From contig CAMPBR010000002.1 of the NCBI GenBank assembly GCA_946639185.1, forward strand, positions 1,097 through 65,096: a stretch of 64,000 bases of DNA, given 5' to 3'. Of this stretch, positions 25,837 to 39,545 are shown one piece after another. Each line of letters starts with the position of its first letter. Within the stretch, counting starts at the first letter, position 1. The DNA is from an uncultured Mycoplasmatota bacterium. Lineage in GTDB: Bacteria > Bacillota_I > Bacilli_A > RF39 > UBA660. Position numbers and translations under genes: made by a program. The notes beneath the pieces were generated by a model. The model had not been told where the DNA came from and searched no databases. It saw nothing but the letters and a program-made list of their open reading frames with translations.

Positions 25837-26127
25837 ATGGATAAAACAATATATTATAATGTGTTATATGATTATTATGGATCATTATTAACTGATAAGC
25901 AAAAGAGTTATTATGAAGATTATTATTTTAATGATCTATCACTTTCTGAAATAGCTGAAAATAATAATGTTAGTAGAAATGCTGTTCATAATCAGTTAAA
26001 AATAGTAATAGAAAAATTAGAATTTTATGAAAATAATTTAAAACTCTATGAAAAATCAAAAAAAATTGGTACAATATTAAAGAGACTAGACGAAAAGACT
26101 AAAAAAGAAATAGAAGAATTAATATAG
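25837..26127 (+). CDS. ylxM: YlxM/UPF0122 putative SRP-associated DNA-binding protein
   Basis: LYDYYGSLLTDKQKSYYEDYYFNDLSLSEIAENNNVSRNAV aligns residue for residue with B. subtilis YlxM. Confidence 0.75.
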   Translation: MDKTIYYNVLYDYYGSLLTDKQKSYYEDYYFNDLSLSEIAENNNVSRNAVHNQLKIVIEKLEFYENNLKLYEKSKKIGTILKRLDEKTKKEIEELI

Positions 26128-26138
26128 GGGTTGATATT

Positions 26139-27893
26139 GTGTTTAAGAATATTCTTTATGTAGGGGATGTAGATGTTGAAATTGCTTTATTAGAAGATGC
26201 TTCTATTAATACTGATATTATGAATATGCCAATAGTATTAGTAGATAGTGAAAAAGCCATTCTAGCTGAAATTAAGGAAATGAATCCTAAAAGTGTTAAG
26301 GCTAAAATGTTAGGTGAGCTTGTTGATGGTAAATTTATTGGTGGTATTTTAAGAAAACCAAATCTAACAGCTACTATTCGTAGTTTAACACCTGATGAAT
26401 TAAGATATATTGTAGGTGAAGCTAATAAAGGAAATTTATTATTAGGAATAAGCCCATTTTATAATAAACAAAATGTGTATGTTGAATTAAATGAATTATT
26501 TAGTAAACATTTATGTGTATTTGGTAATACTGGATCAGGTAAAAGTTGCGGTGTATCTAGAATTATTCAAAATATATTTACAAACAAGGATTTTGTTCCA
26601 TATAAATCTAATTTTTTAATATTTGATTCATCAAGTGAGTACTATACAGCATTTTCTAGTATAAATAGTATTAATCCTAATTATAATTATAGATTTATTA
26701 CTACTAATAATAAGAGTCCATATCCACATGAAATACTTAGTATTCCATTATGGTTACTTAACGTAGAAGATATAAGCTTATTATTAAATGTTAATACATA
26801 TACACAAATATCTATTCTAGAAAAGACTTTAAAATTGGTTAAGATATTTGCTGAATCTAGTGATAAAGCTATTGAATATCAAAACCATTTAATAGCTAGT
26901 GCGATTATGACAATTCTTTATTCTAATCAGGGATCTGCTAGTAAAAGAGATGAAATCTTCTCATTATTTAATACATGTCAAACAGAAGCATTTAATTTAA
27001 ATGCTACTGTACAAGGTATTGGATATACAAGAAGATTACAAGAATGTTTCTTAATAGATAATTCAGATAATTTCTCAGAAAGAGTATTACTTACAGAATA
27101 TGTTAATAAATATATAAGACCTGATTTAAATCAATATGAACCAGAAAAAGTTGAAAAGTATGGTTTAGTTGAATTAGAAAAAGCTTTAAACTTTGCTTTA
27201 ATTAGTGAAGGTTGGTTAAGAAATAAAAATGTATATGCTGATGCTATTACATTAAAAGTTAAATTACATGAATTAGTAATTGGTCCTAATAGTAAGTTCT
27301 TTAATTATAGTGAATTTGTTACATTAGATCAATTTATTAGTAAATTAATAGTTAAGAATAATAAGAAATATCAAATTATTAATATTAACTTAGAAGATGT
27401 AGATGATAGTTTTGCTAAAGCTATTGTTAAAGTTATGTCTAGAATGGTATTTGATCTTTCTAAAAGAATTGAAAGAGGTAGTTTACCTTTTAATATAATT
27501 CTAGAAGAAGCACATAGATATGTACAAAGAGATTCAGATACTCAATTATTTGGATATAATATATTTGATAGAATTGCTAAAGAAGGACGTAAATATGGCG
27601 TTTTATTATCTTTAATAAGTCAAAGACCAGTTGAACTTTCTGATACAGTTATTTCTCAATGCTCTAACTTTATTATATTTAAGATGAGCCATCCTAGAGA
27701 TATTGAATATATTACTAAGATGATTCCAAATATAACAGATGATACAATTGAAAAACAAAAAGCTTTACAAGTTGGTAACTGTTTAGCCTTTGGTAGTGGA
27801 TTTAGAATACCTATTATAGTAAGACTTGATATGCCTAATCCAATGCCTCAAAGTAACAGCTGTGATGTTGTAGAGAAGTGGACAAGTAGATAG
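26139..27893 (+). CDS. HerA/FtsK-superfamily (DUF87-like) P-loop ATPase, orphan. GTG start.
   Basis: Walker A VFGNTGSGKSCGV, Walker B NIILEEAHRYV and the sensor motif LISQRP are present. The N-terminal ~120 aa suggest a HAS-barrel-like domain. The gene has its own terminator. No NurA-like partner is adjacent. Confidence 0.6.
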   Translation: MFKNILYVGDVDVEIALLEDASINTDIMNMPIVLVDSEKAILAEIKEMNPKSVKAKMLGELVDGKFIGGILRKPNLTATIRSLTPDELRYIVGEANKGNLLLGISPFYNKQNVYVELNELFSKHLCVFGNTGSGKSCGVSRIIQNIFTNKDFVPYKSNFLIFDSSSEYYTAFSSINSINPNYNYRFITTNNKSPYPHEILSIPLWLLNVEDISLLLNVNTYTQISILEKTLKLVKIFAESSDKAIEYQNHLIASAIMTILYSNQGSASKRDEIFSLFNTCQTEAFNLNATVQGIGYTRRLQECFLIDNSDNFSERVLLTEYVNKYIRPDLNQYEPEKVEKYGLVELEKALNFALISEGWLRNKNVYADAITLKVKLHELVIGPNSKFFNYSEFVTLDQFISKLIVKNNKKYQIININLEDVDDSFAKAIVKVMSRMVFDLSKRIERGSLPFNIILEEAHRYVQRDSDTQLFGYNIFDRIAKEGRKYGVLLSLISQRPVELSDTVISQCSNFIIFKMSHPRDIEYITKMIPNITDDTIEKQKALQVGNCLAFGSGFRIPIIVRLDMPNPMPQSNSCDVVEKWTSR

Positions 27894-27914
27894 AGACTTA
27901 GGTCTCTTTTTTTG
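27892..27914 (+). terminator. Rho-independent terminator after the HerA-like gene
   Basis: Stem agagac/gtctct around loop ttag, then a T7 run. Confidence 0.65.
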
Positions 27915-27920
27915 TGGGAT

Positions 27921-27948
27921 AAAAAAATGCTTGACTTTTTTTTATTTT
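27921..27948 (+). promoter_or_regulatory. Near-consensus sigma-A promoter with extended -10, driving the secreted-protein cluster
   Basis: TTGACT, a 16-nt spacer, then TGtTATAAT. Confidence 0.6.
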
Positions 27949-27991
27949 GTGTTATAATATCAGCTAAACTTATTTATGGGGGGTTTGTGGT

Positions 27992-29554
27992 ATGAAAAAA
28001 TGGGGGTCAAAACATACTAACAACAACGATAGAACTAAGTTATTAATTTATATGTTAAAACATAAAAATAGAAATATTTATGCAGCAAGTTTATTAGCAC
28101 TTGCTACTATATTAATGATTGCTCAAGCTAAGAAAGATAATATTGAAGATACGGATTTAAGTGATATAGCACTTGAGCAAGAAAGTACAATTGATATGAG
28201 TAATGAAATTATTGAAGAAATAGATAATGAATTACAACAAGAAATAACTCCAGATGATAATAGTGTTATCTATTATACAGATTGGAGTTATTTTCATATT
28301 AAACACATAGGCAATAAAAAAGTGGTAGAAAGTCACCACTATTCAGATTATATATATAATGAAGAAACTGGAAATTATGAAGCTACATGTTTAGAATGTG
28401 GACACGTTGATACTAAGAAACATGTAGAAGAAGTTAGTATAGAAAGTTCAGTAGAAAATTCTAAACCTGTTTCTACAAGTAATAAAGATAATAATAAAGT
28501 TAATGATTCTAGTAATACTAGTAGTACTACTACAACAAATAATTCTAATAATAATGTAGCAGAAGAAAGTAATACTAATCAAGAAACTAATAATGGAAAT
28601 AATAACAACAATAATAATACAGAAGGAACTAAACCAACACCAAAACCTGTACATCAACATACATGGTCAGGTTGGTCATACTATAATGATAGTCAAGAAG
28701 TAAGTAGTTGTTCTGATTGTAATGAAAAGAAATATCAATCACATAGTTATGGTTCTTATTCATATAATCAAGCTAGTGGTTTAGAAGAAGCTACCTGTTC
28801 ATCTTGTGGACACGTTATAACAAGATCACATACACATCAATTTAGTGGATGGGTTGCTGATAATGATTCAACACACTCAAGAACATGTACTGTAAATGGT
28901 GATAATACTAAAGAAACAGTTAGTCACAATTATTCATTAATTGGACAAGATGGTGTTAATGATACATATAGATGTTCTGATTGTGGACATACAATGGCAC
29001 TTCCACATTCACATACATTTAATGGAACTAATACTAGAACTATAGGTAGCGCTTCTGAATGTTACCAAACATATCAAGTATGTTCTGGATGTGGTAATGA
29101 AGTAGTTATTGAGACAAAAACATCTCATAATTATGGGGCACCAACAACATCAGAAAGTGGTGGAATGATATATGAAGTATATACATGTTCAGATTGTGGA
29201 TATTCATATCAAGAAGAACATGGACATACAGCTTCATATGTTGAACGAGTAGAAGATGTTGGTAGTGATGATGTATGTTATCGTGTATATCTACATTGTG
29301 ATTATCCTGGATGTAGTCAACACGAAGATATTCTTCAAGGAGAATATGGACATAATTATCAACATGGTAGTGAAACAGTATTTGATACAACTATCGAATT
29401 CGATGAATGTACTCGTTGTCATAAAGTGATAAATGAAGTTGAAACAATAAATACAGGAGCTAAAGTAAATTTCTTTAATATTTTCGATTATCTATATGAT
29501 GACAAATTATTAGCTAAAGAAGATAAAGAGAAAACTTTAAGTTTAAAAATATAA
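27992..29554 (+). CDS. Secreted or membrane-anchored protein built from about eight tandem Cys/His-rich modules, possibly extracellular zinc-ribbon-like
   Basis: N-terminal signal/anchor (IYAASLLALATILMIAQA). The recurring unit is H-x-[YFW]...C-x-x-C-G-[HYN]-x(5-8)-H-x-H, for example ATCLECGHVDTKKH, SCSDCNEKKYQSH, ATCSSCGHVITRSHTH, YRCSDCGHTMALPHSH, VCSGCGNEV and YTCSDCGYSYQEEHGH. An Asn/Thr-rich linker is also present. Confidence 0.55.
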   Translation: MKKWGSKHTNNNDRTKLLIYMLKHKNRNIYAASLLALATILMIAQAKKDNIEDTDLSDIALEQESTIDMSNEIIEEIDNELQQEITPDDNSVIYYTDWSYFHIKHIGNKKVVESHHYSDYIYNEETGNYEATCLECGHVDTKKHVEEVSIESSVENSKPVSTSNKDNNKVNDSSNTSSTTTTNNSNNNVAEESNTNQETNNGNNNNNNNTEGTKPTPKPVHQHTWSGWSYYNDSQEVSSCSDCNEKKYQSHSYGSYSYNQASGLEEATCSSCGHVITRSHTHQFSGWVADNDSTHSRTCTVNGDNTKETVSHNYSLIGQDGVNDTYRCSDCGHTMALPHSHTFNGTNTRTIGSASECYQTYQVCSGCGNEVVIETKTSHNYGAPTTSESGGMIYEVYTCSDCGYSYQEEHGHTASYVERVEDVGSDDVCYRVYLHCDYPGCSQHEDILQGEYGHNYQHGSETVFDTTIEFDECTRCHKVINEVETINTGAKVNFFNIFDYLYDDKLLAKEDKEKTLSLKI

Positions 29555-29574
29555 AAAAGAAAGGATGAAAGGGT

Positions 29575-30351
29575 ATGAAAAATAAAAAGTGGTATCAAAA
29601 AATAAGTAACTGGATTTTTATACTACTAGTAATGATATTATTACCAATATTGCTTATTAATATTTATATCATGATACAAGCAAATAATGATAATGATAAA
29701 GTACCTAGTGTATTTGGTTATAAACCATTTATTGTATTATCTGGTTCGATGGAAACTAAAATACATGTTGGTGACTTAATCATTACTAAAGAAATAGATC
29801 CAACTACTTTGGTAGTAAATGACGTTATAGCATTTAGAGACCAAGAAAATACCGTTACTACACATAGAATTATAGATATTGTAGAAAAAGATGGTGTTAC
29901 TTATTTTATAACTAAAGGTGATAATAATAATTCACAAGACCAAAATCTTGTAGAATATAAAGATGTTGAAGGTTTATATATCACACGTATTCCTAGTGTT
30001 GGTAATATGTTAAATGAAATTTCTAAACCAACAACAGTAGTAATTATTGGATTAGGATTAACAGTAGTATTTATACTAGCTTTCCAAATATCTAATAATA
30101 AATATAAAGATCAAGAAAAACAAGAATTTTTAGAATATAAGAAGATGAAAGAAAAGGAACAAAAAGAAAAAGAAGCAAAAGAGTCTTTAGAAGCAAAACA
30201 AACAAAAACTTCTAAAAAAACTACTGCTAAGAAATCTACTTCCAAAAAAGAAGAAAGTACTCCTAAGAAACAATCTTCTAAGACTACTAGCAAAAAGACT
30301 AGTACTAAAAGTACACAGTCTAAAAAGGTAGTTTCTAAAAAAACTAAATAA
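29575..30351 (+). CDS. sipW: SipW-type (archaeal/ER-type) signal peptidase I with a C-terminal Lys/Thr/Ser-rich tail of about 90 aa
   Basis: One TM helix, then the catalytic region LSGSMETKIHVGDLIITKEI ... VTTHRIIDI ... ITKGDNN. Tail: KKTTAKKSTSKKEESTPKKQSSKTTSKKTSTKSTQSKKVVSKKTK. Confidence 0.75.
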   Translation: MKNKKWYQKISNWIFILLVMILLPILLINIYIMIQANNDNDKVPSVFGYKPFIVLSGSMETKIHVGDLIITKEIDPTTLVVNDVIAFRDQENTVTTHRIIDIVEKDGVTYFITKGDNNNSQDQNLVEYKDVEGLYITRIPSVGNMLNEISKPTTVVIIGLGLTVVFILAFQISNNKYKDQEKQEFLEYKKMKEKEQKEKEAKESLEAKQTKTSKKTTAKKSTSKKEESTPKKQSSKTTSKKTSTKSTQSKKVVSKKTK

Positions 30352-30482
30352 TAATTTAACTACTCTGGTATTTGAACTACCTCAAGTAAATTTGGGTAAA
30401 CATTCTTAGGAGTGTTTACATAGATAGGATATATCTTTGGATATACTCCTAAGAAAGTTTTATTATGGGGGAGGTGAATCAA

Positions 30483-31067
30483 ATGACTAAAAAATTATCA
30501 ATCTTAGCTGCATTAGTATTAGCTGTTTTAGTAACTGCTAACTCTGTAGGTGGTACATACGCTAAGTATACTAGTACTTTTACTGGTGCTACATCATCTG
30601 CAAGAGTTGCTAAATGGGCTTTCGAAATTAATGATACTGCTGTAACAAATTCATTTACTTTCAATTTATTTGAAACTGTAAATGATACTAATGTTGCAAC
30701 TGGTACTAACGAAAATATAATTGCACCTGGTACATCTGGTTCATTTGCTATCAAATTAGCTAATAAGTCAGAAGTTAATGCAGTTTATACAGTAGATTAT
30801 ACAGTTACAAATGCAGCTAATATCCCAGTAGAATTTAGTATCGATGGTACTACTTGGACTACTGATTTAGCTGATGTAACTACACCAGTAGCTATCAATA
30901 TGAATGCTGATACTACTATCACAGTTCAATGGAGATGGGCATTCGTTGGTACTGGTAGTGCTAACTATGCTGATACTCAAACTGATGCTACTGATACTAC
31001 TTTAGGTATTGCTGGTACTGGTACTATTTCAGTTCAAGCTAATATTACTGCTACTCAAGTTGACTAA
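30483..31067 (+). CDS. TasA/camelysin-like secreted protein with a SipW-cognate signal peptide
   Basis: Strong SD (gggggaggtgaatcaaATG). The signal peptide ends in VGGTYAKYTSTFTG, comparable to the TasA GGTWAAFND motif. The C-terminal TITVQWRWAF resembles the TasA LQFSFEATQWNG strand. 194 aa. Confidence 0.55.
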   Translation: MTKKLSILAALVLAVLVTANSVGGTYAKYTSTFTGATSSARVAKWAFEINDTAVTNSFTFNLFETVNDTNVATGTNENIIAPGTSGSFAIKLANKSEVNAVYTVDYTVTNAANIPVEFSIDGTTWTTDLADVTTPVAINMNADTTITVQWRWAFVGTGSANYADTQTDATDTTLGIAGTGTISVQANITATQVD

Positions 31068-31165
31068 TAATAGATAGAAAGTTATTTTTATAACTTTCTG
31101 CTAAGTTCATTATTAGTAATGAATTTAGTAGAGCGTTATTAAATGCTAGAGAGGGGGAATTTATT

Positions 31166-33970
31166 ATGAATAATAATATATCTGATAATAAAAGAAATAA
31201 AAAAGTTATTATTAAGATAATTATGCTTATTGTGATTATCCTTCTTTTAGTATGTAGTTGTACTGCTACTAGATATTTTGGTAGAATTGGAAAACGTAAT
31301 TTGGAATTAAATAAAGATATTAATAATAAACCAGAACTTCCAATTATAAATAATGAAAACTTAAAATTTGATTTAGATAGTGATACTAATATTACTATTA
31401 GCGGTGATAAATATAAAATTAGTTATACAACTAAAGGTGTTAAATTAAAAAATCTAACATGTTCTACATCTGATTCTAAAATCGCTACATGTTATGTAGA
31501 AGATGGATATATAGTAGTTGTACCTAAAGGAAATGGTACAGTTGATATTATATTAGAAGGTATTACTAATGATACTAGATATCAATCTACTACTACAATA
31601 ACTGTTGGTAATAGTGAAGCATCTAGTAGTAATAATGATAGTAATGATGGTAACAATAGTAGTAATGGTAATAGTGGTACTAATACTAATACTCAAGTAG
31701 ATCCTGGTACTACTAGTGGTGGTAATACTGATGTTACTCCTGAAGTTGGAGATATAGTTGTAGATAGTGATTCTAGATTAAAATCTTTAACTGTTGGATC
31801 TTATTTATTAAAACCAAGTTTTAATTCTGAAGTTTATGATTATGTAGTTACTGTTGATAGCAGTGTTAACAAAGTTAATATTAAAGCTAAAACTAATTCA
31901 AATAGAGCTAAAATATTATCTGGTACTGGTAATATTAGATTAAATAGTAATTCGACTATAGTTTCTATTATTGTAGAAGCAGAAGATGGAACTACTAGTA
32001 CATATACAGTTAAGATTAATAAAAAAGATAATCCTACTGTTTTATCAAATGATGCGACTTTAAAGAAATTAGAAGCTACTAATTATACTTTAAATCCAAC
32101 TTTTGAAAGTAATACATTTAATTATGTTTTAGAAGTTGGATATAATGTAAATAGTTTAGATTTAACAGCTATAGCTAACTCTGAATATGCTAATGTAACT
32201 ATTAAAAATAATTTTAATTTTGTTACTGGAAATAATATAGTAGAAATAGTAGTAGTTGCAGAAGATGGAACTACTAATACTTATAAAATAACTGTTAATA
32301 AACAAGCTAAAGAAGAAGCATCTAAAGCTTCACTTAAAGATATTAAAATTAATGGTAATTCAATTAATAACTTTGATTCTAATGTTTTAACATATAATGT
32401 TACAGTAGATTCAAATACTAATAGTTTAAATATTGAAGGTATACCAGAATATGATAATACTAGTGTTGTAGTAACTGGTAATACTAATCTTAATCCAGGT
32501 ACTAATACAGTAGCTATTCTAGTTACTGGTAGTGATGGAAGTAGTAAAACTTATAATATTATAGTTAATAAAGAGAAAGATAGTACTAATACATTAACTA
32601 GTTTAGGAATTAAGAATTATTTATTAAATGAAGTATTTAGTGAAAATAAATTTAATTATTCTGTTAATGTAGGAGCTGATGTTACTGACTTAGAAGTTTT
32701 ATATACTAAGAAAGATTCTAGAGAAACAGTAGAAATTACTGGTAATACTAATATTGGTGTTAGTGGAAGTGAAATTTTAGTTAAAGTAATAGCTGAAGAT
32801 GGTATTTATAATACTTATAAGATTACAGTAATTAAAGCTATAGATCTTTCTCAATATTATATTTATTCAATAGAAAATTATACTCTAGGATATAATCCTA
32901 GTAATGATAATTCTAAAACTATTATTATTAATAATAATATTTTAGAAGGAAGTGTAGTAGTAGAAAAAACAAATTCATCTATTACATTAACTGATAGTAA
33001 TAATTCTAAAGTTGTTTTAACTTATAATGATTTAGATATTACTTATATTGAAGATACAACTCTTTCTTCATTAGCATTTAAAGTTAATTATACTTCTAGT
33101 GGTGTTAAGACTATTAATGTTACAGGTAGTATAGGAAATAATATTATTAAGACATATGATATTACTTTAAATATTACTAAACAATTTAATGTAGTATTAG
33201 ATGCTAATAATGGATTCTTTACTGAATTATCTGATAAGTATGAATTTATTGTTGATGATGGTGAAATGTTTGATTTAAGTATCTATAATACAGCATATAA
33301 ATTAGTTGATGATACTAGTTGTTTAACTTATAAGTTTATTGGTTATGATATAGATAAAACTAGTAATACTCCATTATATGAAGTTGATAGTTTATCTAGT
33401 ATTAGTATAACTAGTGATATAACTTTATATGCGGTATATAGTACTACAGATACTACTACATATGTATCTACTAATAATAGATTATATTTAACTAATATTG
33501 ATTTATTTGTACTTGAAGATGGTACTAAGAATTTAATATATCCTGGTACTAATGGATCATATGTTATGAGAATTAAAAATACAACTAATGATAAAGTAGT
33601 AATTGATTCAATTAAATTAGAAGAAAATAATATATGTATTGATAGTAATACTTGTGTCAATATGGGATATAAAGTTAGATATACAGAAAATAATAGTAAT
33701 ATTTATTCTTATGCGATAGGCTCTAGTAATAATTATAGAGTTATCTATAAAGAAGGAACTAGTGTAGATGCTAATTTTAATAATTTAGAATTAAATCCAG
33801 GAGAAGAGACAGAAATAACTTTATTCTGGATGTGGGCTTATTCAGAGTCTAGTAGTCAAGATAATATTGATACTAGTATTGGTAATTATATGAATTCTCA
33901 TCCAAACCTAACTTATGATATAACAGTATCATTTACATATTCTAAAGAAAGTAGTCAGTGTGGTAACTAA
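31166..33970 (+). CDS. Giant SipW-cognate surface protein: N-terminal anchor, five cadherin-like repeats and a C-terminal TasA-like domain
   Basis: Five ~90-aa repeats each end in ...AEDGTT(S/N)TYK(I/V)T(V/I)NK. The C-terminal region (NGSYVMRIKNTTNDKV ... ETEITLFWMWAY) parallels ORF 30483..31067 (TSGSFAIKLANKSEVN ... TITVQWRWAF). Confidence 0.6.
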   Translation: MNNNISDNKRNKKVIIKIIMLIVIILLLVCSCTATRYFGRIGKRNLELNKDINNKPELPIINNENLKFDLDSDTNITISGDKYKISYTTKGVKLKNLTCSTSDSKIATCYVEDGYIVVVPKGNGTVDIILEGITNDTRYQSTTTITVGNSEASSSNNDSNDGNNSSNGNSGTNTNTQVDPGTTSGGNTDVTPEVGDIVVDSDSRLKSLTVGSYLLKPSFNSEVYDYVVTVDSSVNKVNIKAKTNSNRAKILSGTGNIRLNSNSTIVSIIVEAEDGTTSTYTVKINKKDNPTVLSNDATLKKLEATNYTLNPTFESNTFNYVLEVGYNVNSLDLTAIANSEYANVTIKNNFNFVTGNNIVEIVVVAEDGTTNTYKITVNKQAKEEASKASLKDIKINGNSINNFDSNVLTYNVTVDSNTNSLNIEGIPEYDNTSVVVTGNTNLNPGTNTVAILVTGSDGSSKTYNIIVNKEKDSTNTLTSLGIKNYLLNEVFSENKFNYSVNVGADVTDLEVLYTKKDSRETVEITGNTNIGVSGSEILVKVIAEDGIYNTYKITVIKAIDLSQYYIYSIENYTLGYNPSNDNSKTIIINNNILEGSVVVEKTNSSITLTDSNNSKVVLTYNDLDITYIEDTTLSSLAFKVNYTSSGVKTINVTGSIGNNIIKTYDITLNITKQFNVVLDANNGFFTELSDKYEFIVDDGEMFDLSIYNTAYKLVDDTSCLTYKFIGYDIDKTSNTPLYEVDSLSSISITSDITLYAVYSTTDTTTYVSTNNRLYLTNIDLFVLEDGTKNLIYPGTNGSYVMRIKNTTNDKVVIDSIKLEENNICIDSNTCVNMGYKVRYTENNSNIYSYAIGSSNNYRVIYKEGTSVDANFNNLELNPGEETEITLFWMWAYSESSSQDNIDTSIGNYMNSHPNLTYDITVSFTYSKESSQCGN
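31770..32830 (+). repeat. Five tandem ~270-bp coding repeats (cadherin-like beta-sandwich modules) inside ORF 31166..33970
   Basis: DNA-level recurrences such as gcagaagatggaactactagtacatatacagttaagattaataaa, gcagaagatggaactactaatacttataaaataactgttaataaa and gctgaagatggtatttataatacttataagattacagtaattaaa. Confidence 0.55.
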
Positions 33971-34458
33971 TGAAAACTATTAGAAGAATAATAAAGTGGT
34001 TAGTATTAATTATATTATTACTTATTATGACATTTAATATGTATAGTTATATTAATGTTAAAGTTTTAGGTAATAAATTAAATACAGTAGGTGGATATTC
34101 TATTTTACAAGTTGTATCTCCATCTATGGAACCAACTATTCATGTTGGCAGTTTAGTATTAATTAATACAAAAGAAAGTAATTATAAAGTAAATGATATA
34201 GTTACTTATGAAGATGAGAATGGGTTGTTGGTTACCCATAGAATTATTGATATAGATGATGATTTTATGGTAACTAAGGGTGATAATAATGATAGTGATG
34301 ATGGTTTAATTAGTTTAGATGTTATTAAAGGAAAACTAATTTATCAATCACATATAGTAGGAGAAATTATTACAATTCTACAAAATAAAATAGTATTAAT
34401 ATTAATATTTATAATAGGAATACTTGGATGTGTAGAATTAGATAATAAAAAAGAATAA
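33970..34458 (+). CDS. Second SipW-type signal peptidase I (162 aa, no Lys-rich tail)
   Basis: VVSPSMEPTIHVGSLVLINTKE ... LVTHRIIDI ... VTKGDNN is paralogous to 29575..30351. The start overlaps the upstream stop (ATGA). Confidence 0.72.
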   Translation: MKTIRRIIKWLVLIILLLIMTFNMYSYINVKVLGNKLNTVGGYSILQVVSPSMEPTIHVGSLVLINTKESNYKVNDIVTYEDENGLLVTHRIIDIDDDFMVTKGDNNDSDDGLISLDVIKGKLIYQSHIVGEIITILQNKIVLILIFIIGILGCVELDNKKE

Positions 34459-34474
34459 AGAAAGGAAGATTAAT

Positions 34475-35026
34475 ATGAATATGTTACTGCATAGTAAGAC
34501 ATTTAAGAAAAACTTACTTAAATGGATAATTATATATTTTGGTGTAATTGCACTGTTTACTAGTGTAGTCACATATTCAAAATATATATCTAGTCAAGTA
34601 GCAGGATCGACTGCTAGTATAGCTAAGTTCCAAGTAGATATAATAAAAACTAAGATATGTTCTACGTTGGATACAGAACGTTGTAATTACTATGATACAG
34701 ATGGTAATTTACTTAATGAAGAATATAAGTTTAAACCATATGATTCTTTAGATTTTTACTTCAATGTTGATACACAAGAATTAGAGGTTTCTACTAAACT
34801 TGTTCTTACTATTCATGTAGATTCATCTAAAGTAAAAGTTATTTCTATAAATGGAGAAGAACAAGAAGAAGATAGATCTTTAATAACACTAATAGATCCT
34901 AAGATGGATATGGGTACTATTAAAGAATATATAATTAGAGTAGAGCCTAAGGGAACTTTGTATGAAAGTGAAGTTAATATGACTGAAGCAATTAAAATAG
35001 ATTATTCAGCTGTACAAATAGATTAA
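34475..35026 (+). CDS. Small putative SipW-cognate secreted protein (183 aa)
   Basis: A TM/signal segment is followed by TYSKYISSQVAGSTASIAKF, which resembles the TYAKYTSTFTGATSSARVAKW of the TasA-like protein. Confidence 0.45.
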   Translation: MNMLLHSKTFKKNLLKWIIIYFGVIALFTSVVTYSKYISSQVAGSTASIAKFQVDIIKTKICSTLDTERCNYYDTDGNLLNEEYKFKPYDSLDFYFNVDTQELEVSTKLVLTIHVDSSKVKVISINGEEQEEDRSLITLIDPKMDMGTIKEYIIRVEPKGTLYESEVNMTEAIKIDYSAVQID

Positions 35027-35042
35027 TAAGAAAGGTGGGATT

Positions 35043-36617
35043 TTGGTGAAAACTAAATTAAGAATTTATGTAGTTATATTACTTATTTGCTTTTTTAATA
35101 TTTCATGTTTTTCTGTTTTTCCAGAATCTCATGCTAAATATATTAAGGAAGAAGTAGATAAACTTACTTATGATGCTACTTTATATAAACTAACTGGTAA
35201 TTATAAAACTATAGGTATTAATAGAAATAGATCTACATCAACAACTGGTTATTTCTATATCTTATTTGATAGAAATACACTTATGTATGATAATGACACT
35301 ACTGATAATTATACGATTACAGTAGGATCTAATAATACTAGTACTTCTAGTATTTGTAAAATTGATTCTATTATATCTAGTGGTACTAATAGTAAAGTAA
35401 GTGATTATATATATGATGTTACATATGACCATAATGATAGTAATACAATTACTATAAATGTTATATGTGATATGGATGAAGAATACTATTTTAGTAATCC
35501 AAGTGATTATATAAATGTATCTTTATCAGTATCAGAAAATATCGATGGTGAAAAGACATTTACTTATATTAATACATCATATGTATTAACAACATATCAA
35601 GAGTATTATGAAGTATATGGATCTTTATACAATAAAGCTTTATATTTTATAAGAAATACATATGCTGATGATAGTTCATTAAGAGAAGTTGCTATGAGTT
35701 ATTTCAATTCAGTATTTTTAACTGATAGTGATATAGAAACTAAAACATTAGATGGATTTAATTATGATAGTTCTACTGGTACTTTCAGTTTAAGTAGTGA
35801 TTTCTTAAAATATGCTAGAACATATTATAGTACTACTAATGGTAATGGAAAATATTATTTCTATTTTGATAGTAGTAGTACTGATAGTAGTGCATTAAAT
35901 AGTTTATTTGAATATTATTTAAGTAAATATACTAATTTTAATGAAAGTGATTATAATGAATTAATAACATATGTTAATACTAAACCTAATGGTATTTTAG
36001 ATGTATTAACTAGTGGTTTAACTGGATTCTCTGTAGTAGATGATACAGCTTATAATCATAAGATATTATCATTTAAGGATTCTATTATTAATATAGCTAA
36101 CTATGTTAATAATCCAACTCCTGTTTCAGTAATAGCTATTAATAATGATAAAGTTTTTAATATGAAAGCTTATTTAAGAAATTATATTAATAATTATGAA
36201 GGTTTATCAGATACTGTTAAATCTGGATTAATAAATAATATAATTAGTGATGCTAATTATCAATTAAGTTTATTAGTGACAGCTAATGCTACTAATAATG
36301 GTACTCAATCAACAAACGATAGTTTCTCTGAATTATTCTTTGATACATTTGGTGAAGCTGGTCAAGAAGAAAAGATTATGGCAAATGTTTATGCTGATGG
36401 AGTTGAAGCTATTACGTATGTTAAGTTCTATAACTTAGAAGAAGGTAATACTGTTATATATACTTCACCAACTGAAATAACTGAAACTGATTATAATAGT
36501 TTTGTAGATGAAGTACATGAAGATGTATATGGTGAACCATTAGATACAGATTTACCATTACCGGATGCAACTTTAGAAAATGGATTCTATACATATGATT
36601 ATGTTATTGAAGAGTAA
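35043..36617 (+). CDS. Putative SipW-cognate secreted protein (524 aa), Ser/Thr/Asn/Tyr-rich. TTG or GTG start.
   Basis: SD aaaggtgggattTTG. The signal segment is followed by PESHAKYIKEE. A terminator follows. Confidence 0.45.
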   Translation: MVKTKLRIYVVILLICFFNISCFSVFPESHAKYIKEEVDKLTYDATLYKLTGNYKTIGINRNRSTSTTGYFYILFDRNTLMYDNDTTDNYTITVGSNNTSTSSICKIDSIISSGTNSKVSDYIYDVTYDHNDSNTITINVICDMDEEYYFSNPSDYINVSLSVSENIDGEKTFTYINTSYVLTTYQEYYEVYGSLYNKALYFIRNTYADDSSLREVAMSYFNSVFLTDSDIETKTLDGFNYDSSTGTFSLSSDFLKYARTYYSTTNGNGKYYFYFDSSSTDSSALNSLFEYYLSKYTNFNESDYNELITYVNTKPNGILDVLTSGLTGFSVVDDTAYNHKILSFKDSIINIANYVNNPTPVSVIAINNDKVFNMKAYLRNYINNYEGLSDTVKSGLINNIISDANYQLSLLVTANATNNGTQSTNDSFSELFFDTFGEAGQEEKIMANVYADGVEAITYVKFYNLEEGNTVIYTSPTEITETDYNSFVDEVHEDVYGEPLDTDLPLPDATLENGFYTYDYVIEE

Positions 36618-36640
36618 GTAAAACTTACTCTTTTTTTATT
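36612..36640 (+). terminator. Rho-independent terminator
   Basis: Stem gagtaag/cttactc followed by a T7 run. Confidence 0.65.
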
Positions 36641-36689: not shown

Positions 36690-37352
36690 ATGATGGGAAA
36701 AGAAAAATATTCAACATCTTTTTTGGAATTTTTAGAACCAAATAAGAATAAAGCTATAGCTGTTATTTCTAAGTGTCAATATGCTATTAATATAGATAGT
36801 GGTACTCATGAAGGAATGCTTGCTGATTTAATATCAAATATTAGACCTAGATTTTCTAAAAATAATTTTTCTATAGGGGATTGTATAATAATACTTGCAG
36901 ATAATGGTTATCCAGGTATTATATATATAGAACTTCCAAAAAGTCAAACGATAAGTTTAGAACAATATAATTGTTTAAGTGAAATACTTTATTATATTAA
37001 GAATTATAATCGTATATGTGCTTGGGAAAGACCTGGTTATGAATATGAAATAAATGTTAAGAATGGTAATAATGATATTGATATTAAGAAGAATTATGCT
37101 AATGATATAGATGGTTTATTAAAAATATTAAATAATTATGTTATTAATGATAATACTTTTTATAAAGAAAGAATTATAGGTAGAAAGTTTGATAATAAAG
37201 AAGAATATGTTGATAAAATAATTGAGTCTATGGATAGTGATACTAATAATTTAAAATATAAGGGTTATAGTAGTTTACCTATACTTATATTATTTTCTAC
37301 ATTTACTTCAATTACTGTTTTAATATTAGCTATATTTCTAATAATAGACTAG
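36690..37352 (+). CDS. Hypothetical protein (220 aa) with a C-terminal TM anchor
   Basis: The C-terminal hydrophobic helix is LPILILFSTFTSITVLILAIFLII. No motif. Confidence 0.4.
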   Translation: MMGKEKYSTSFLEFLEPNKNKAIAVISKCQYAINIDSGTHEGMLADLISNIRPRFSKNNFSIGDCIIILADNGYPGIIYIELPKSQTISLEQYNCLSEILYYIKNYNRICAWERPGYEYEINVKNGNNDIDIKKNYANDIDGLLKILNNYVINDNTFYKERIIGRKFDNKEEYVDKIIESMDSDTNNLKYKGYSSLPILILFSTFTSITVLILAIFLIID

Positions 37353-37412: not shown

Positions 37413-38720
37413 ATGTTTGAATCACTTGGAGATAGACTACAAAATGCTCTTCATAAAATAAAGGGATATGGAAAAATAACTGAAGATAATATATCTGATA
37501 TGATGCGTGAAATTAGACTTGCATTATTAGAGGCAGATGTTAATTATCAAGTAGTAAAAGAGTTTACAAATACCGTTAAAGAGAAAGCTTTAGGTGAGGA
37601 AGTACAAAAATCAATTAAGCCTGGAGATTTGTTTGTTAAAATTGTACAAGATGAATTAACTGAATTATTAGGTGGAGAAAGTTCTCCTTTAAATACAAAT
37701 GGTAATCCAGCTATTTTAATGTTAGTTGGTTTACAAGGTTCAGGTAAAACTACTACTATTGGTAAGTTAGCTAATTATTTAAGAAAAAAACATGCTAAAA
37801 AGCCTCTTCTTGTTGCTTGTGATGTATATCGTCCAGCTGCTATTGATCAATTAAAACAATTAGGTAAACAACTTAATATAGAAGTATATGAAGAAGGAAA
37901 AGATGATCCTGTTAAGATTAGTAAAAATGCTATTAATTATGCTAAAGAAAATGGATATGATTATGTATTAATAGATACTGCTGGACGACTTCATATTGAT
38001 AGCGAATTAATGGAAGAAGTTAAAAATATTAGTTTAGAAGTTAAACCTCAAGAAATATTATTAGTAATTGATTCTATGATGGGTCAAGATGCTATTAATG
38101 TTATTAATGGATTTAATGATGCTCTAAAATTAACTGGTGTTATTTTAACTAAGTTAGATGGGGATACTAGAGGTGGAGTTGCTTTATCTGTTAGACATTT
38201 AACTAATGTTCCAATTAAGTTTATTGGTGTTTCTGAAAAATTAGATGGTTTAGATATGTTTGACCCAGAAAGAATGGCTGGAAGAATTTTAGGTATGGGT
38301 GATATTGTTTCACTTGTTGAAAAAGCTCAAGAAGCAATTTCAGAAGAAGAAGCTATGGATACTGCTAAAAAAATGCAATCTGGTAAGTATGATTTAGAAG
38401 ATTTCTTAAAACAAATGAAACAAATTAAGAAATTAGGACCACTTGAAAATATTATTAAGATGTTACCAGGAGCTAAAAAAATGGGACTTAATAATGTTAA
38501 TATTGATCCTAAACAAATGGCTCATGTTGAAGCTATAGTTTTATCTATGACGCCATATGAAAGACGTCATCCTGAAATAATTAAAGCAAGTAGAAAAACT
38601 AGAATTGCTAAAGGATGTGGATTATCAGTTTCAGAAGTAAATAAACTTTTAATGCAATTTGATAACATGAAAAAAATGATGAAACAAATGACATCAGGTA
38701 ATATGAAATTACCTTTCTAG
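37413..38720 (+). CDS. ffh: Signal recognition particle protein Ffh
   Basis: The NG domain carries GLQGSGKTTTIGKLA, DTAGR and TKLDG, and the C-terminal M domain is Met-rich. Confidence 0.92.
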   Translation: MFESLGDRLQNALHKIKGYGKITEDNISDMMREIRLALLEADVNYQVVKEFTNTVKEKALGEEVQKSIKPGDLFVKIVQDELTELLGGESSPLNTNGNPAILMLVGLQGSGKTTTIGKLANYLRKKHAKKPLLVACDVYRPAAIDQLKQLGKQLNIEVYEEGKDDPVKISKNAINYAKENGYDYVLIDTAGRLHIDSELMEEVKNISLEVKPQEILLVIDSMMGQDAINVINGFNDALKLTGVILTKLDGDTRGGVALSVRHLTNVPIKFIGVSEKLDGLDMFDPERMAGRILGMGDIVSLVEKAQEAISEEEAMDTAKKMQSGKYDLEDFLKQMKQIKKLGPLENIIKMLPGAKKMGLNNVNIDPKQMAHVEAIVLSMTPYERRHPEIIKASRKTRIAKGCGLSVSEVNKLLMQFDNMKKMMKQMTSGNMKLPF

Positions 38721-39200: not shown

Positions 39201-39545
39201 ATGTTTAGTAGATGTTATGAAAGAGATAACGATATAAACAATACATTTATAGCTGATAATATGGATGTTGATATGAATGCAAATTATATGAATAATATGT
39301 CTATGCCTATGAATATGGATCCAGGTATGCAAATAAATGGAGGCATTCAACCACCAATTATTGAGCCAATGCAAGAAAATATTGTTAATCGTACTATCAT
39401 TCATGAAGTTCCACATATATGTCCTAAACAAACTAGAATAATAAATCATCATGTATTTAAACACACTTATCAACCATCTTATTCTTGTTGTGAAGAAAAT
39501 GTATGTAGCGAGATTCAATGTGGTAGTTGTTGTAATTTTAGATAA
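39201..39545 (+). CDS. Possible CotD-family spore-coat protein, Met/Asn/His/Cys-rich
   Basis: Strong SD (ataggaggaaaaactATG). IIHEVPHICPKQTRIINHHVFKHTYQPSY fits the CotD-like H..P.I.P.QT..IN.H.F.H.Y.P pattern. Cys-rich C-terminus (CCEENVCSEIQCGSCCNF). A terminator follows. Confidence 0.45.
   Translation: MFSRCYERDNDINNTFIADNMDVDMNANYMNNMSMPMNMDPGMQINGGIQPPIIEPMQENIVNRTIIHEVPHICPKQTRIINHHVFKHTYQPSYSCCEENVCSEIQCGSCCNFR

Follow-up and report, generated by a model that had tools for sequence, protein, structure and literature searches.

A predicted membrane-tethered paralogue of a small secreted subunit, fused to Cadherin-like repeats, is a candidate anchor or terminator of TasA-like fibres in gut Bacilli

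We analyzed a 64,000-nucleotide stretch of contig CAMPBR010000002.1 from an uncultured Mycoplasmatota bacterium (the window) and found that the 934-aa open reading frame at 31166-33970 of the forward strand, hereafter the giant, is a real and conserved gene. Judging by sequence comparison, its C-terminal domain is a true paralogue of the small secreted protein encoded next to it, and the two genes share a conserved operon that also encodes two signal peptidases of the SipW type. Our best reading, at about even odds, is that the giant serves as a membrane-tethered, acceptor-only anchor or terminator of fibres, carried on a stalk that spans the wall, in a system that is known from its genes alone. 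How TasA-type fibres are attached and how their growth ends is unsettled, and the role of TapA is debated. The cassette offers a simple, testable anchor candidate: a putative subunit paralogue in which the acceptor core is retained, the N-terminal segment is gone, and the membrane holds the protein in place.

The cassette comprises seven genes on the forward strand in the order Cys-rich membrane protein, SipW-like peptidase 1, small subunit, position-2 protein (here the giant), SipW-like peptidase 2, 183-aa protein, and variable large protein. It extends over 27992-36617 and is flanked by a promoter-like site, TTGACT-16-TATAAT with an upstream TG (27931..27958, a consensus match only), and by a closing terminator-like hairpin with an 11-pair stem and then a T run (36609..36633). 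A further terminator-like hairpin at 27892-27907 closes a HerA-like ATPase gene and precedes the promoter-like site. We rejected this ATPase (26139-27893) as a member of the system because its gene is closed by a separate terminator and was missing from 80 of 80 related loci. The 520-aa product of the first cassette gene (27992..29554) has a hydrophobic segment near its N-terminus and recurring Cys motifs; it matched an NCBIfam CxxC zinc-binding model below threshold (33 bits, cut-off 37). In 9 related loci, a homologue is encoded ahead of peptidase 1, one example being a 709-aa protein in locus L002 (E = 1.5e-40).

Both peptidases are SipW-type (archaeal/ER-type) signal peptidases I by TIGR02228 (cut-off 51.85 bits). 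Copy 1 (29575..30351; 92.3 bits) carries a Lys/Ser/Thr-rich C-terminal tail, and the start of copy 2 (33970..34458; 77.4 bits) overlaps the giant's stop codon. With the Bacillus SipW equivalog NF046067 (cut-off 190), they scored only 101 and 68 bits, so we call them SipW-like and not SipW orthologues. Homologues of both copies were found in 79 of 80 related loci. Downstream, the 183-aa protein (34475..35026) has a signal and first mature residues (TYS↓KYISSQVAGSTASIAKFQV; the arrow marks the end of the signal here and below) resembling those of the small subunit. It aligned with the small family in hhalign mainly over the N-terminal region (E = 1e-4, probability 56%) and has homologues at the same position in 35 loci, which makes it a candidate minor or initiator subunit. 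The last, variable gene (35043..36617) encodes a 524-aa protein with a similar N-terminus, ...SHA↓KYIK; it had no family match in Pfam or NCBIfam and homologues in only 4 loci, and we rejected it as a subunit paralogue for want of a significant match to the small family.

Related loci were gathered with the small-family alignment, starting from homologues of the small protein. The position-2 gene encodes the same kind of domain as the giant's C-terminus in 66 of 81 of them, spread over Bacilli and Clostridia, and its product is short in Clostridia (190-520 aa) and giant in gut Bacilli (700-1700 aa). The L002 cassette has an identical gene order, and its ortholog of the giant is 34% identical over the full length; a look-up of the exact 934-aa sequence found no record. 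The best reading of the 934-aa gene is an expanded gut-Bacilli version of a conserved position-2 gene. Carriers of the cassette include the cultured strains Lactonifactor longoviformis DSM 17459 and Lachnoclostridium sp. An138. The window also encodes PBP1A and a PASTA kinase, from which we conclude that the host, a Gram-positive of the gut, has a cell wall.

The small subunit (30483..31067; 194 aa, or 200 aa from an alternative start at 30465) is 100% identical to the library protein P0001, and we found 1838 relatives, none with a Pfam domain. It carries a SipW-class signal, ...VGGTYA↓KYTS, which aligns with ...GGGTWA↓AFND of TasA. Its AlphaFold model (pLDDT 78) has the TasA fibre 8AUR as its best PDB match in Foldseek, a weak one (E = 1.6e-3, TM 0.33-0.38), followed by the donor-strand pilins FimG and PapG. 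Residues 28-55 form a conserved N-terminal segment that is modelled with low confidence. In BsaA, subunits are locked by an Asn-Lys isopeptide bond with an N-E-K triad (PMC11580942); conserved residues of the small family include Asn94, Glu97, Lys28, and Lys44, and those of the giant Asn805 and Glu820.

The preliminary description had called the giant's C-terminal domain TasA/camelysin-like; its kinship with the small protein held, and membership of PF12389 (TasA/CalY, Peptidase_M73) did not. With E values as high as 10 allowed, PF12389 still matched neither the small protein nor the giant nor any of 62 members of the small family. Against an alignment of a 37-sequence TasA family, hhalign aligned the signal peptide alone for the small family (E = 0.026, probability 2%) and gave E = 0.72 for the C-terminal domain, and TasA was not found in a PDB-sequence profile search. 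We therefore rejected PF12389 membership for both proteins. Our use of "TasA-like" refers to the two SipW-type peptidases, the TasA-class signal of the small protein, and the weak top Foldseek match to 8AUR. Neither the small protein nor the C-terminal domain nor the Clostridial relatives of the two could be assigned to a named family by searches of Pfam, NCBIfam, and PDB sequences. Two protein families that curated libraries leave unnamed are thereby defined: the small subunit with its 1838 relatives, and the C-terminal domain with 101 representative clusters. Together, they point to a surface-fibre system that is likely to exist in uncultured gut Bacilli of low GC content.

The C-terminal domain, a predicted beta-sandwich, is encoded at 33440..33970 including the stop codon. 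BLASTP aligned giant residues 788-903 with the upstream 194/200-aa ORF (E = 1e-4, 28% identity). This resemblance, quoted motifs included, had been noticed in the preliminary description, and its E value is below the level at which the similarity was to be given up there (E > 0.01); the domain is shorter than was thought, at ~170 and not ~250 residues. Alignments of the domain and of the small family matched each other in hhalign (E = 1e-7, probability 94%). A word-indexed search with the domain missed even the giant itself, and we used exhaustive phmmer instead, with giant residues 755-934 as the query and 1.8 billion proteins as the library. This yielded 101 representative proteins, nearly all of them 800-1700 aa long with the domain at the C-terminus, and cross-matches to the small-family members P0215 and P0221 at library-wide E values of 8e-5 and 1e-3. 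The AlphaFold model (pLDDT 88.9, pTM 0.81) places the domain at about residues 764-932, and its order of secondary-structure elements is identical to that of the small-subunit model. Conserved in the domain are IYPG-G-Y, a Cys824/Cys830 pair, W-x-W, DT-IG, and Cys932, and four motifs are common to the small subunit and the domain, in the same order.

This domain might instead be a ligand-binding jelly-roll displayed on a stalk, sharing ancestry with the small protein and acting outside the polymer, in which case the giant would be a stand-alone surface adhesin. Jelly-rolls that bind ligands or receptors head the PDB matches of the C-terminal model (Eph receptor ligand-binding domains, phage lambda gpJ, and the carbohydrate-binding module CBM61), TasA is not among its top 50, and a conserved Cys pair and an insertion in the domain are both missing from the small family. 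However, those matches are weak (TM about 0.3), the four small-subunit motifs are present in the same order, and the gene lies between the subunit and second peptidase genes in 66 of 81 loci, in Bacilli and Clostridia alike. The short forms are, moreover, nearly stalkless, so adhesin display is not the conserved function. We regard a stand-alone adhesin as quite unlikely.

In 26 of the 29 position-2 proteins that the small-family HMM matched, the match began at HMM position 41 at the earliest, and mostly not before 72. The giant's domain is, by this profile comparison, without the small subunit's N-terminal ~30-residue segment, the presumed donor strand. The preliminary description had asked whether the giant's own N-terminus, after SipW-type cleavage, can act as a donor strand; with that segment missing and no SipW-class signal found on the giant, the sequence supports neither the donor strand nor the cleavage. 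In place of such a signal is a lipobox or membrane anchor. Residues 1-32 (31166..31261) consist of a Lys/Arg-rich start, a hydrophobic segment, and a lipobox-like LVCSC, in which L-V-C-S-C32 matches the PROSITE PS51257 pattern as a regular expression; of 80 long family members, 71 match the same pattern. Among 66 position-2 proteins, 61 begin with a strongly hydrophobic N-terminal segment, and a GTYAKY-type signal is found in none. The lipobox is missing from 3 of 35 giants in the loci, and the L006 giant has no Cys at all. In the short Clostridial forms, a Lys/Arg-rich start is followed by one hydrophobic helix. Most likely, the giant is tethered by its N-terminus through a lipidated Cys or an uncleaved helix. 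The preliminary description had overlooked this anchor, which changes the interpretation of the giant.

Directly after the lipobox lies a conserved membrane-adjacent motif, TATRYFGRIG (31262..31291; family consensus xFFGKIG), identified by family comparison. Of 80 long family members, 76 have an FFGKIG-type motif, as do 38 of 66 position-2 proteins, the latter including some short Clostridial forms without Cys. This motif and the second peptidase gene mean that the anchor could be cleaved off, and only then does the earlier suggestion of a fibre tip or adhesin subunit survive. A SipW-like peptidase would cut the giant after its hydrophobic segment, the giant would enter the fibre via its C-terminal domain, or via the new FFGKIG-type N-terminus as a donor strand, and the Cadherin-like stalk would form a distal adhesin. 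The cassette has two peptidase paralogues, one overlapping the giant's stop codon, the motif is kept even without Cys, as a processing or recognition site might be, and Cadherin-like repeats are typical of adhesins. In archaeal TasA-like pili, AbpB has been proposed as a FimH-like adhesin-initiator (PMC9245690).

Several observations count against a cleaved tip. The GTYAKY-type signal, common to the small and 183-aa proteins, is found in 0 of 66 position-2 proteins, and the 183-aa and 524-aa proteins, which do carry the class signal, are better tip or initiator candidates. A Lys at position -3 makes a poor signal peptidase I site, and G-K-I-G has one there. In the base-growth model, the free donor strand is at the cell-proximal end of the fibre, where an acceptor-only domain would consequently sit (PMC11580942). 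Given the N-terminal membrane tether and the acceptor-only domain, a cell-proximal anchor or terminator fits better than a distal tip adhesin, and we think the cleaved tip unlikely.

Between its two ends, the giant is a succession of mostly beta-rich segments, giving the overall order anchor, FFGKIG-type motif, beta-rich segment, linker, four Cadherin-like repeats, beta segment, Flg_new-like domain, and C-terminal domain. The first beta-rich segment (residues ~60-150; 31343..31615) is Ig-like by eye and has no Pfam match; it is followed by a low-complexity linker rich in Ser, Asn, Gly, and Thr (residues 151-200; 31616..31765), as read from the sequence, with short tandem repeats at 31627-31693. 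Residues 1-200 are conserved in giants from 38 loci. The four Cadherin-like beta-sandwich repeats (residues 201-287, 295-380, 386-470, and 473-558; 31766..32839) were recovered by Pfam PF12733 as 4 stretches (85.8 bits, cut-off 24.2) and by an HMM built from the repeats themselves as 4 domains over residues 201-558 (iE 1e-37 to 1e-40). They are 27-40% identical to one another. Five such repeats had been described before; we found four, and rejected a fifth because the next best match of the repeat HMM had an iE of only 0.11. The repeats are visible in the DNA, as had been stated, as the four copies of repeat family D2 (spacings 279/270/264 nt), whose 52-nt core shows 71-79% identity with that of the reference copy. 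Residues 559-669 (32840..33172) form another beta-rich segment without a Pfam match. Residues 670-758 (33173..33439) scored below threshold against PF09479 (E = 0.02; 15.4 bits, cut-off 27), which we take as a weak resemblance to Flg_new (Listeria-Bacteroides repeat) and not as membership. Residues 558-755 are conserved in giants from 22 loci. Our full-text literature searches found no large protein in which such a domain is fused to Cadherin-like repeats, in agreement with the earlier claim that a fibre subunit with an adhesin stalk of its own was not known for TasA-type fibres.

From the homology, domain order, membrane-anchor features, missing N-terminal segment, and conserved synteny shown above, we infer fibre formation, donor-strand exchange, fibre polarity, wall spanning, and an anchoring role. 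The small subunit would be exported by its TasA-class signal peptide, which a SipW-type peptidase would then remove. It would then polymerise as its freed N-terminal segment enters the beta-sandwich of a neighbour, like TasA and BsaA; TasA polymerises through residues 28-38, directly after the SipW cut (PMC9674648). The giant's N-terminus would stay in the membrane via a lipidated Cys or an uncleaved helix, and its ~700 residues of beta-domains would form a stalk that may reach across the peptidoglycan. Its last ~170 residues would accept a donor strand and have none to give, so the giant would bind the N-terminal strand left free where the fibre is closest to the cell, ending growth and tethering the fibre to the membrane.

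An acceptor-only domain, a membrane tether, and this operon position would also suit a membrane-bound assembly platform or chaperone. Such a protein would bind the N-terminal segment of new small subunits transiently and prime polymerisation without becoming part of the fibre. TapA has been described as a strand-complementing chaperone (PMC10151520), and priming or templating has been proposed for TapA or CapP. Yet a platform has no obvious need for a 700-residue stalk or for protein lengths varying from 700 to 1700 aa, and TapA donates a strand and does not accept one (PMC9674648). We consider a platform or chaperone improbable.

The anchor or terminator reading may extend beyond the window. 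Clostridial position-2 proteins are almost without a stalk, whereas in gut Bacilli the stalk reaches 1500 residues, made of Cadherin-like repeats and other beta-domains. The short Clostridial forms are unable to span a thick wall, so wall spanning is not the stalk's general reason. We suggest, tentatively and with somewhat less conviction than for the giant itself, that TasA/BsaA-type donor-strand fibres of Gram-positive bacteria own a dedicated membrane-tethered, acceptor-only paralogue of the subunit that caps growth and anchors the fibre by taking up its last free donor strand, with the stalk setting the distance at which the fibre starts. BsaA oligomers have been reported as membrane-anchored, with the anchor protein not identified (PMC11580942). 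If our suggestion is true, the position-2 protein is a concrete candidate for the membrane anchor of TasA/BsaA-type fibres.

The cassette can be compared with several known systems. As in tapA-sipW-tasA of Bacillus subtilis, a SipW-type peptidase gene adjoins the gene for a small secreted subunit, here a predicted beta-sandwich, the signals are alike (...GGTWA↓AF in TasA, ...GGTYA↓KY in the small subunit), and the same operon encodes an accessory protein, whose presumed place is where the fibre meets the cell. In contrast, the cassette has two peptidase genes, there is no PF12389 match and no significant profile match beyond the signal peptide, and the accessory protein is membrane-tethered by its N-terminus. 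The giant, as a copy of the subunit core without the N-terminal strand region, would be an acceptor, whereas TapA has an unrelated fold and is thought to be a strand donor. The sipW-bsaA-bsaB-bsaC operon of Clostridium perfringens likewise combines remote kinship to TasA with several paralogues in a sipW operon, and heteropolymers of Bsa paralogues have already been suggested (Kivimaki et al., PMC11580942). BsaB, however, is a secreted paralogue; a membrane-tethered acceptor-only paralogue or a stalk fusion is not described there. Archaeal abpA/abpB pili also have a jelly-roll donor-strand pilin related to TasA by profile and structure only, and their operon encodes Pcal_0904, a protein with one N-terminal membrane helix and a large beta-rich ectodomain that has been suggested to help in anchoring (PMC9245690). 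They differ in the archaeal host and in having no dedicated signal peptidase, and a pilin-like domain has not been reported for Pcal_0904 (PMC9245690). With regard to PF12733 proteins, the giant's four repeats match well above the curated threshold, but the known family gives no information on the C-terminal subunit-like domain or the operon.

The likeness to chaperone-usher pili is one of mechanism and not of ancestry, as these are built by unrelated machinery, a periplasmic chaperone and an outer-membrane usher. FimH has two parts, a pilin domain that takes up a donor strand and offers none, and a non-pilin module to which this domain is fused. PapH ends pilus growth and anchors the pilus at the cell, but donates a strand and is not an acceptor. 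FimH is distal, whereas the tethering of the giant to the membrane by its N-terminus speaks for a place close to the cell.

The 934-aa protein (the giant; 31166-33970, + strand) had been described as carrying a C-terminal domain of ~250 aa that resembles the 194-aa small protein encoded just upstream (30483-31067, +). This similarity is real, and the homologous domain is shorter, at about 170 residues: with BLASTP, residues 83-171 of the small protein read from its alternative start (200 aa) aligned with giant residues 788-903 (E = 1e-4). A word-indexed homologue search with the C-terminal domain gave no match. An exhaustive search of 1.84 billion representative proteins gave 101 (E ≤ 0.001), nearly all with the domain at the C-terminus of a protein of 800-1700 aa, and the weakest of these include two proteins typical of the small family, P0215 (8e-5) and P0221 (1e-3). 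We then compared profiles of 39 C-terminal-domain sequences (alignment A2) and 62 small-family sequences (alignment A1), resulting in an E value of 1e-7 and a probability of 94%. Four motif blocks occur in identical order in the two families, namely F-x-F-x-L-F, I-A-P-G-T-x-G-S-F, W-R-W-A-F and T-D-T-x-L-G in the small family and L-Y-L-T-D-V-D-L-F, I-Y-P-G-A-x-G-S-Y, L-W-K-W-V and L-D-T-x-I-G in the C-terminal domain. AlphaFold models of the small protein and the C-terminal domain agree in strand order and in their single late helix.

In the C-terminal domain, the two Cys residues of I-C-x5-C-x-N-M-G-Y (giant 824 and 830) are invariant, and a third, three residues before the C-terminus (giant 932), is nearly so (window 33635-33961 for all three). 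None of them is present in the small family; they could form a disulfide bond and leave one Cys free or intermolecular. Asn94 is invariant in the small family (30483-31067) and Glu97, Lys28 and Lys44 are at least 90% conserved, while the giant's C-terminal domain (33440-33967) has Asn805 and Glu820. By analogy with the N-E-K triad of BsaA, these residues could provide an inter-subunit isopeptide lock. That the giant is a stand-alone adhesin, with ligand bound by this C-terminal jelly-roll, seems to us improbable.

The window is chromosomal DNA of a Gram-positive bacterium (GC content 23-32%), and its genes include ftsY, ylxM, ffh, priA and those for RNase J1, DnaE, PolC, a class A penicillin-binding protein and a PASTA kinase; the last two show that the host is walled. 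A + strand block between ylxM (25837-26127) and ffh (37413-38720) encodes a HerA-like ATPase (26139-27893), a Cys-rich 520-aa protein with an N-terminal hydrophobic segment (27992-29554), signal peptidase copy 1 (29575-30351), the small protein, the giant, signal peptidase copy 2 (33970-34458), and proteins of 183 aa (34475-35026), 524 aa (35043-36617) and 220 aa (36690-37352). The seven genes from 27992 to 36617 are bracketed by a promoter-like site (27931-27958) and a terminator-like hairpin (36609-36633). Both peptidases score above the curated cut-off of TIGR02228 (archaeal/ER-type signal peptidase I, where SipW belongs) and below that of the Bacillus SipW equivalog. Copy 1 has a Lys/Ser/Thr/Glu-rich C-terminal tail of ~70 residues after its second hydrophobic segment, and several of its orthologues exceed it in length (up to 411 aa); copy 2 has no such tail. 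The 520-aa protein, product of the cassette's first gene, combines an Asn/Ser/Thr-rich stretch with many C-x2-C...H motif repeats and has a sub-threshold match to a CxxC zinc-binding family. Just downstream of ffh, a 114-aa ORF (39201-39545) is Met/Asn/Pro-rich and ends in a Cys-rich tail (CxxxxC...CGSCCNF).

To find related loci, we used the small-family alignment to scan a set of genomes with one representative per species. This gave 80 loci, in whose ORFs we looked by HMM for the small family, the C-terminal domain and the peptidases. The loci belong to uncultured gut Bacilli (record titles Bacilli, Tenericutes, Acholeplasmatales and Erysipelotrichaceae) and to Clostridia (Oscillospiraceae, Lachnospiraceae and Christensenellaceae), and two are from cultured strains, Lactonifactor longoviformis DSM 17459 and Lachnoclostridium sp. 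An138. Seven (L031, L045, L050, L051, L057, L075 and L079) are in records titled Muribaculaceae (Bacteroidota) yet have a Firmicute-type cassette with giants; these contigs are probably mis-binned. Both peptidase genes were found in 79 of the 80 loci, and the recurrent order is peptidase, small subunit, position-2 gene (the giant being the window's version), peptidase and 183-aa-like gene. Homologues of the Cys-rich first gene occupy the equivalent place in 9 other loci, and the 524-aa gene has counterparts in 4. None of the 80 has the HerA-like ATPase gene or the 220-aa gene. The ATPase gene has a terminator-like hairpin of its own and probably lies outside the fibre cassette. Its product (DUF87, HerA/FtsK-like) weakly matches anti-phage HerA models, and no defence-system partner gene was seen beside it. 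The genes ylxM and ffh are normally neighbours in Firmicutes, and here the block from the ATPase gene to the 220-aa gene separates them. In locus L002 the full cassette lies in another chromosomal setting, between ileS and an S41 peptidase gene, and these two settings suggest that the cassette is island-like and movable. The L002 giant is 34% identical to that of the window over its whole length, with the same domain order.

Counting the window, the position-2 product carried the C-terminal-type domain in 66 of 81 loci. Short forms (190-520 aa) account for 31 of these products, and the other 35 are giants (about 700-1700 aa), which occur in Bacilli-type cassettes only. An N-terminal hydrophobic segment was present in 61 of these 66 proteins, and a GTYAKY-type signal in none. 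In 26 of the 29 cases where the small-family HMM matched a position-2 protein, the match did not begin before HMM position 41, and usually not before 72; such starts lie past the signal peptide and roughly 30 subsequent residues. Some Clostridial and some Bacilli loci have three to five tandem small-subunit paralogues ahead of the position-2 gene, as in L028 (1178-3294) and L062 (134-4301), which hints at mixed fibres. Several paralogues can occupy one operon and may form heteropolymers (PMC11580942).

The giant begins with a Lys/Arg-rich stretch followed by a strongly hydrophobic segment, LVCSC and TATRYFGRIG, unlike the signal ...GGTYA/KYTS, which the 183-aa protein has in common with the small protein. 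Of 80 long relatives, 71 fit the PROSITE lipobox pattern (typically LLITSC), and 76 have a FFGKIG-type motif just past the lipobox position. In some short position-2 forms the GKIG motif follows a plain membrane helix without Cys, and the L006 giant also lacks the Cys, so the conserved features are the membrane anchor and the membrane-adjacent motif. Judging from these sequences, lipidation is likely in most giants and not universal. The anchor might be removed, with the second peptidase perhaps cutting at or close to the conserved motif, which would make the giant the terminal adhesin proposed in the preliminary description, though we consider this unlikely. The Cadherin-like repeats, counted there as five, number four (giant residues 201-558); a beta-rich segment at residues ~60-150, Ig-like by eye and with no Pfam match, is not a fifth copy. 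Residues 559-758 hold a further beta-rich segment and a sub-threshold Flg_new-like domain.

A TasA/camelysin identity did not hold at the sequence level, as Pfam, NCBIfam and PDB-sequence searches connected neither the small protein, the C-terminal domain nor the Clostridial relatives to these families. We built a 37-sequence TasA family alignment from a query exactly matching PDB 8AUR. Against this profile, the small family aligned only in the signal peptide (...VsGTYAKYTS with ...GGGTWAAFND; E 0.026), and the C-terminal domain gave an E value of 0.72. "TasA-like" therefore refers to context (SipW-type peptidases, signal-peptide class and beta-sandwich subunit) and probable mechanism, family membership not being established. 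The BsaA and AbpA families are likewise only remote TasA relatives (PMC11580942, PMC9245690).

The donor strand of TasA consists of residues 28-38, which directly follow the SipW cleavage site and complete the next subunit; in the monomer the protein's own residues 48-61 fill the groove; TapA is thought to begin the fibre by strand donation (PMC9674648). Oligomers of C. perfringens BsaA behave as membrane-anchored, and the proposal is that the growing oligomer inserts its free N-terminal strand into a new monomer that SipW has yet to cut and that the signal peptide still holds (PMC11580942). Growth of this kind would leave a free donor strand at the cell-proximal end. A membrane-fixed giant that has an acceptor core and offers no strand itself would bind this end permanently, as terminator and anchor in one, and its stalk could place the acceptor domain beyond the wall. 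Both the giant and the short position-2 forms fit such a role, being membrane-fixed, with the acceptor core present and their own strand missing. Beyond these sequence features the role is inferred, and we give it an even chance. The tethered domain might instead be a transient assembly chaperone, which we think very improbable. Under the anchor and terminator reading, the 183-aa protein, which has its signal and first mature residues in common with the small subunit and no clear similarity in the core, is a candidate strand-donating initiator or tip.

The position-2 family is a sound, testable lead on fibre anchoring, but one that depends on sequence inference and an unproven link to TasA-type polymerisation. 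New here are a membrane-tethered subunit paralogue without the N-terminal segment, its conserved position with a SipW-like gene on either side, and its enlargement, by Cadherin-like repeats among others, into a giant. Full-text searches on SipW/TasA with donor strand, and on TasA-like or SipW with cadherin-like, gave no account of such a protein. The nearest systems are tapA-sipW-tasA, sipW-bsaA-bsaB-bsaC and the archaeal abp operon, and the nearest analogues in function are FimH and PapH of chaperone-usher pili.
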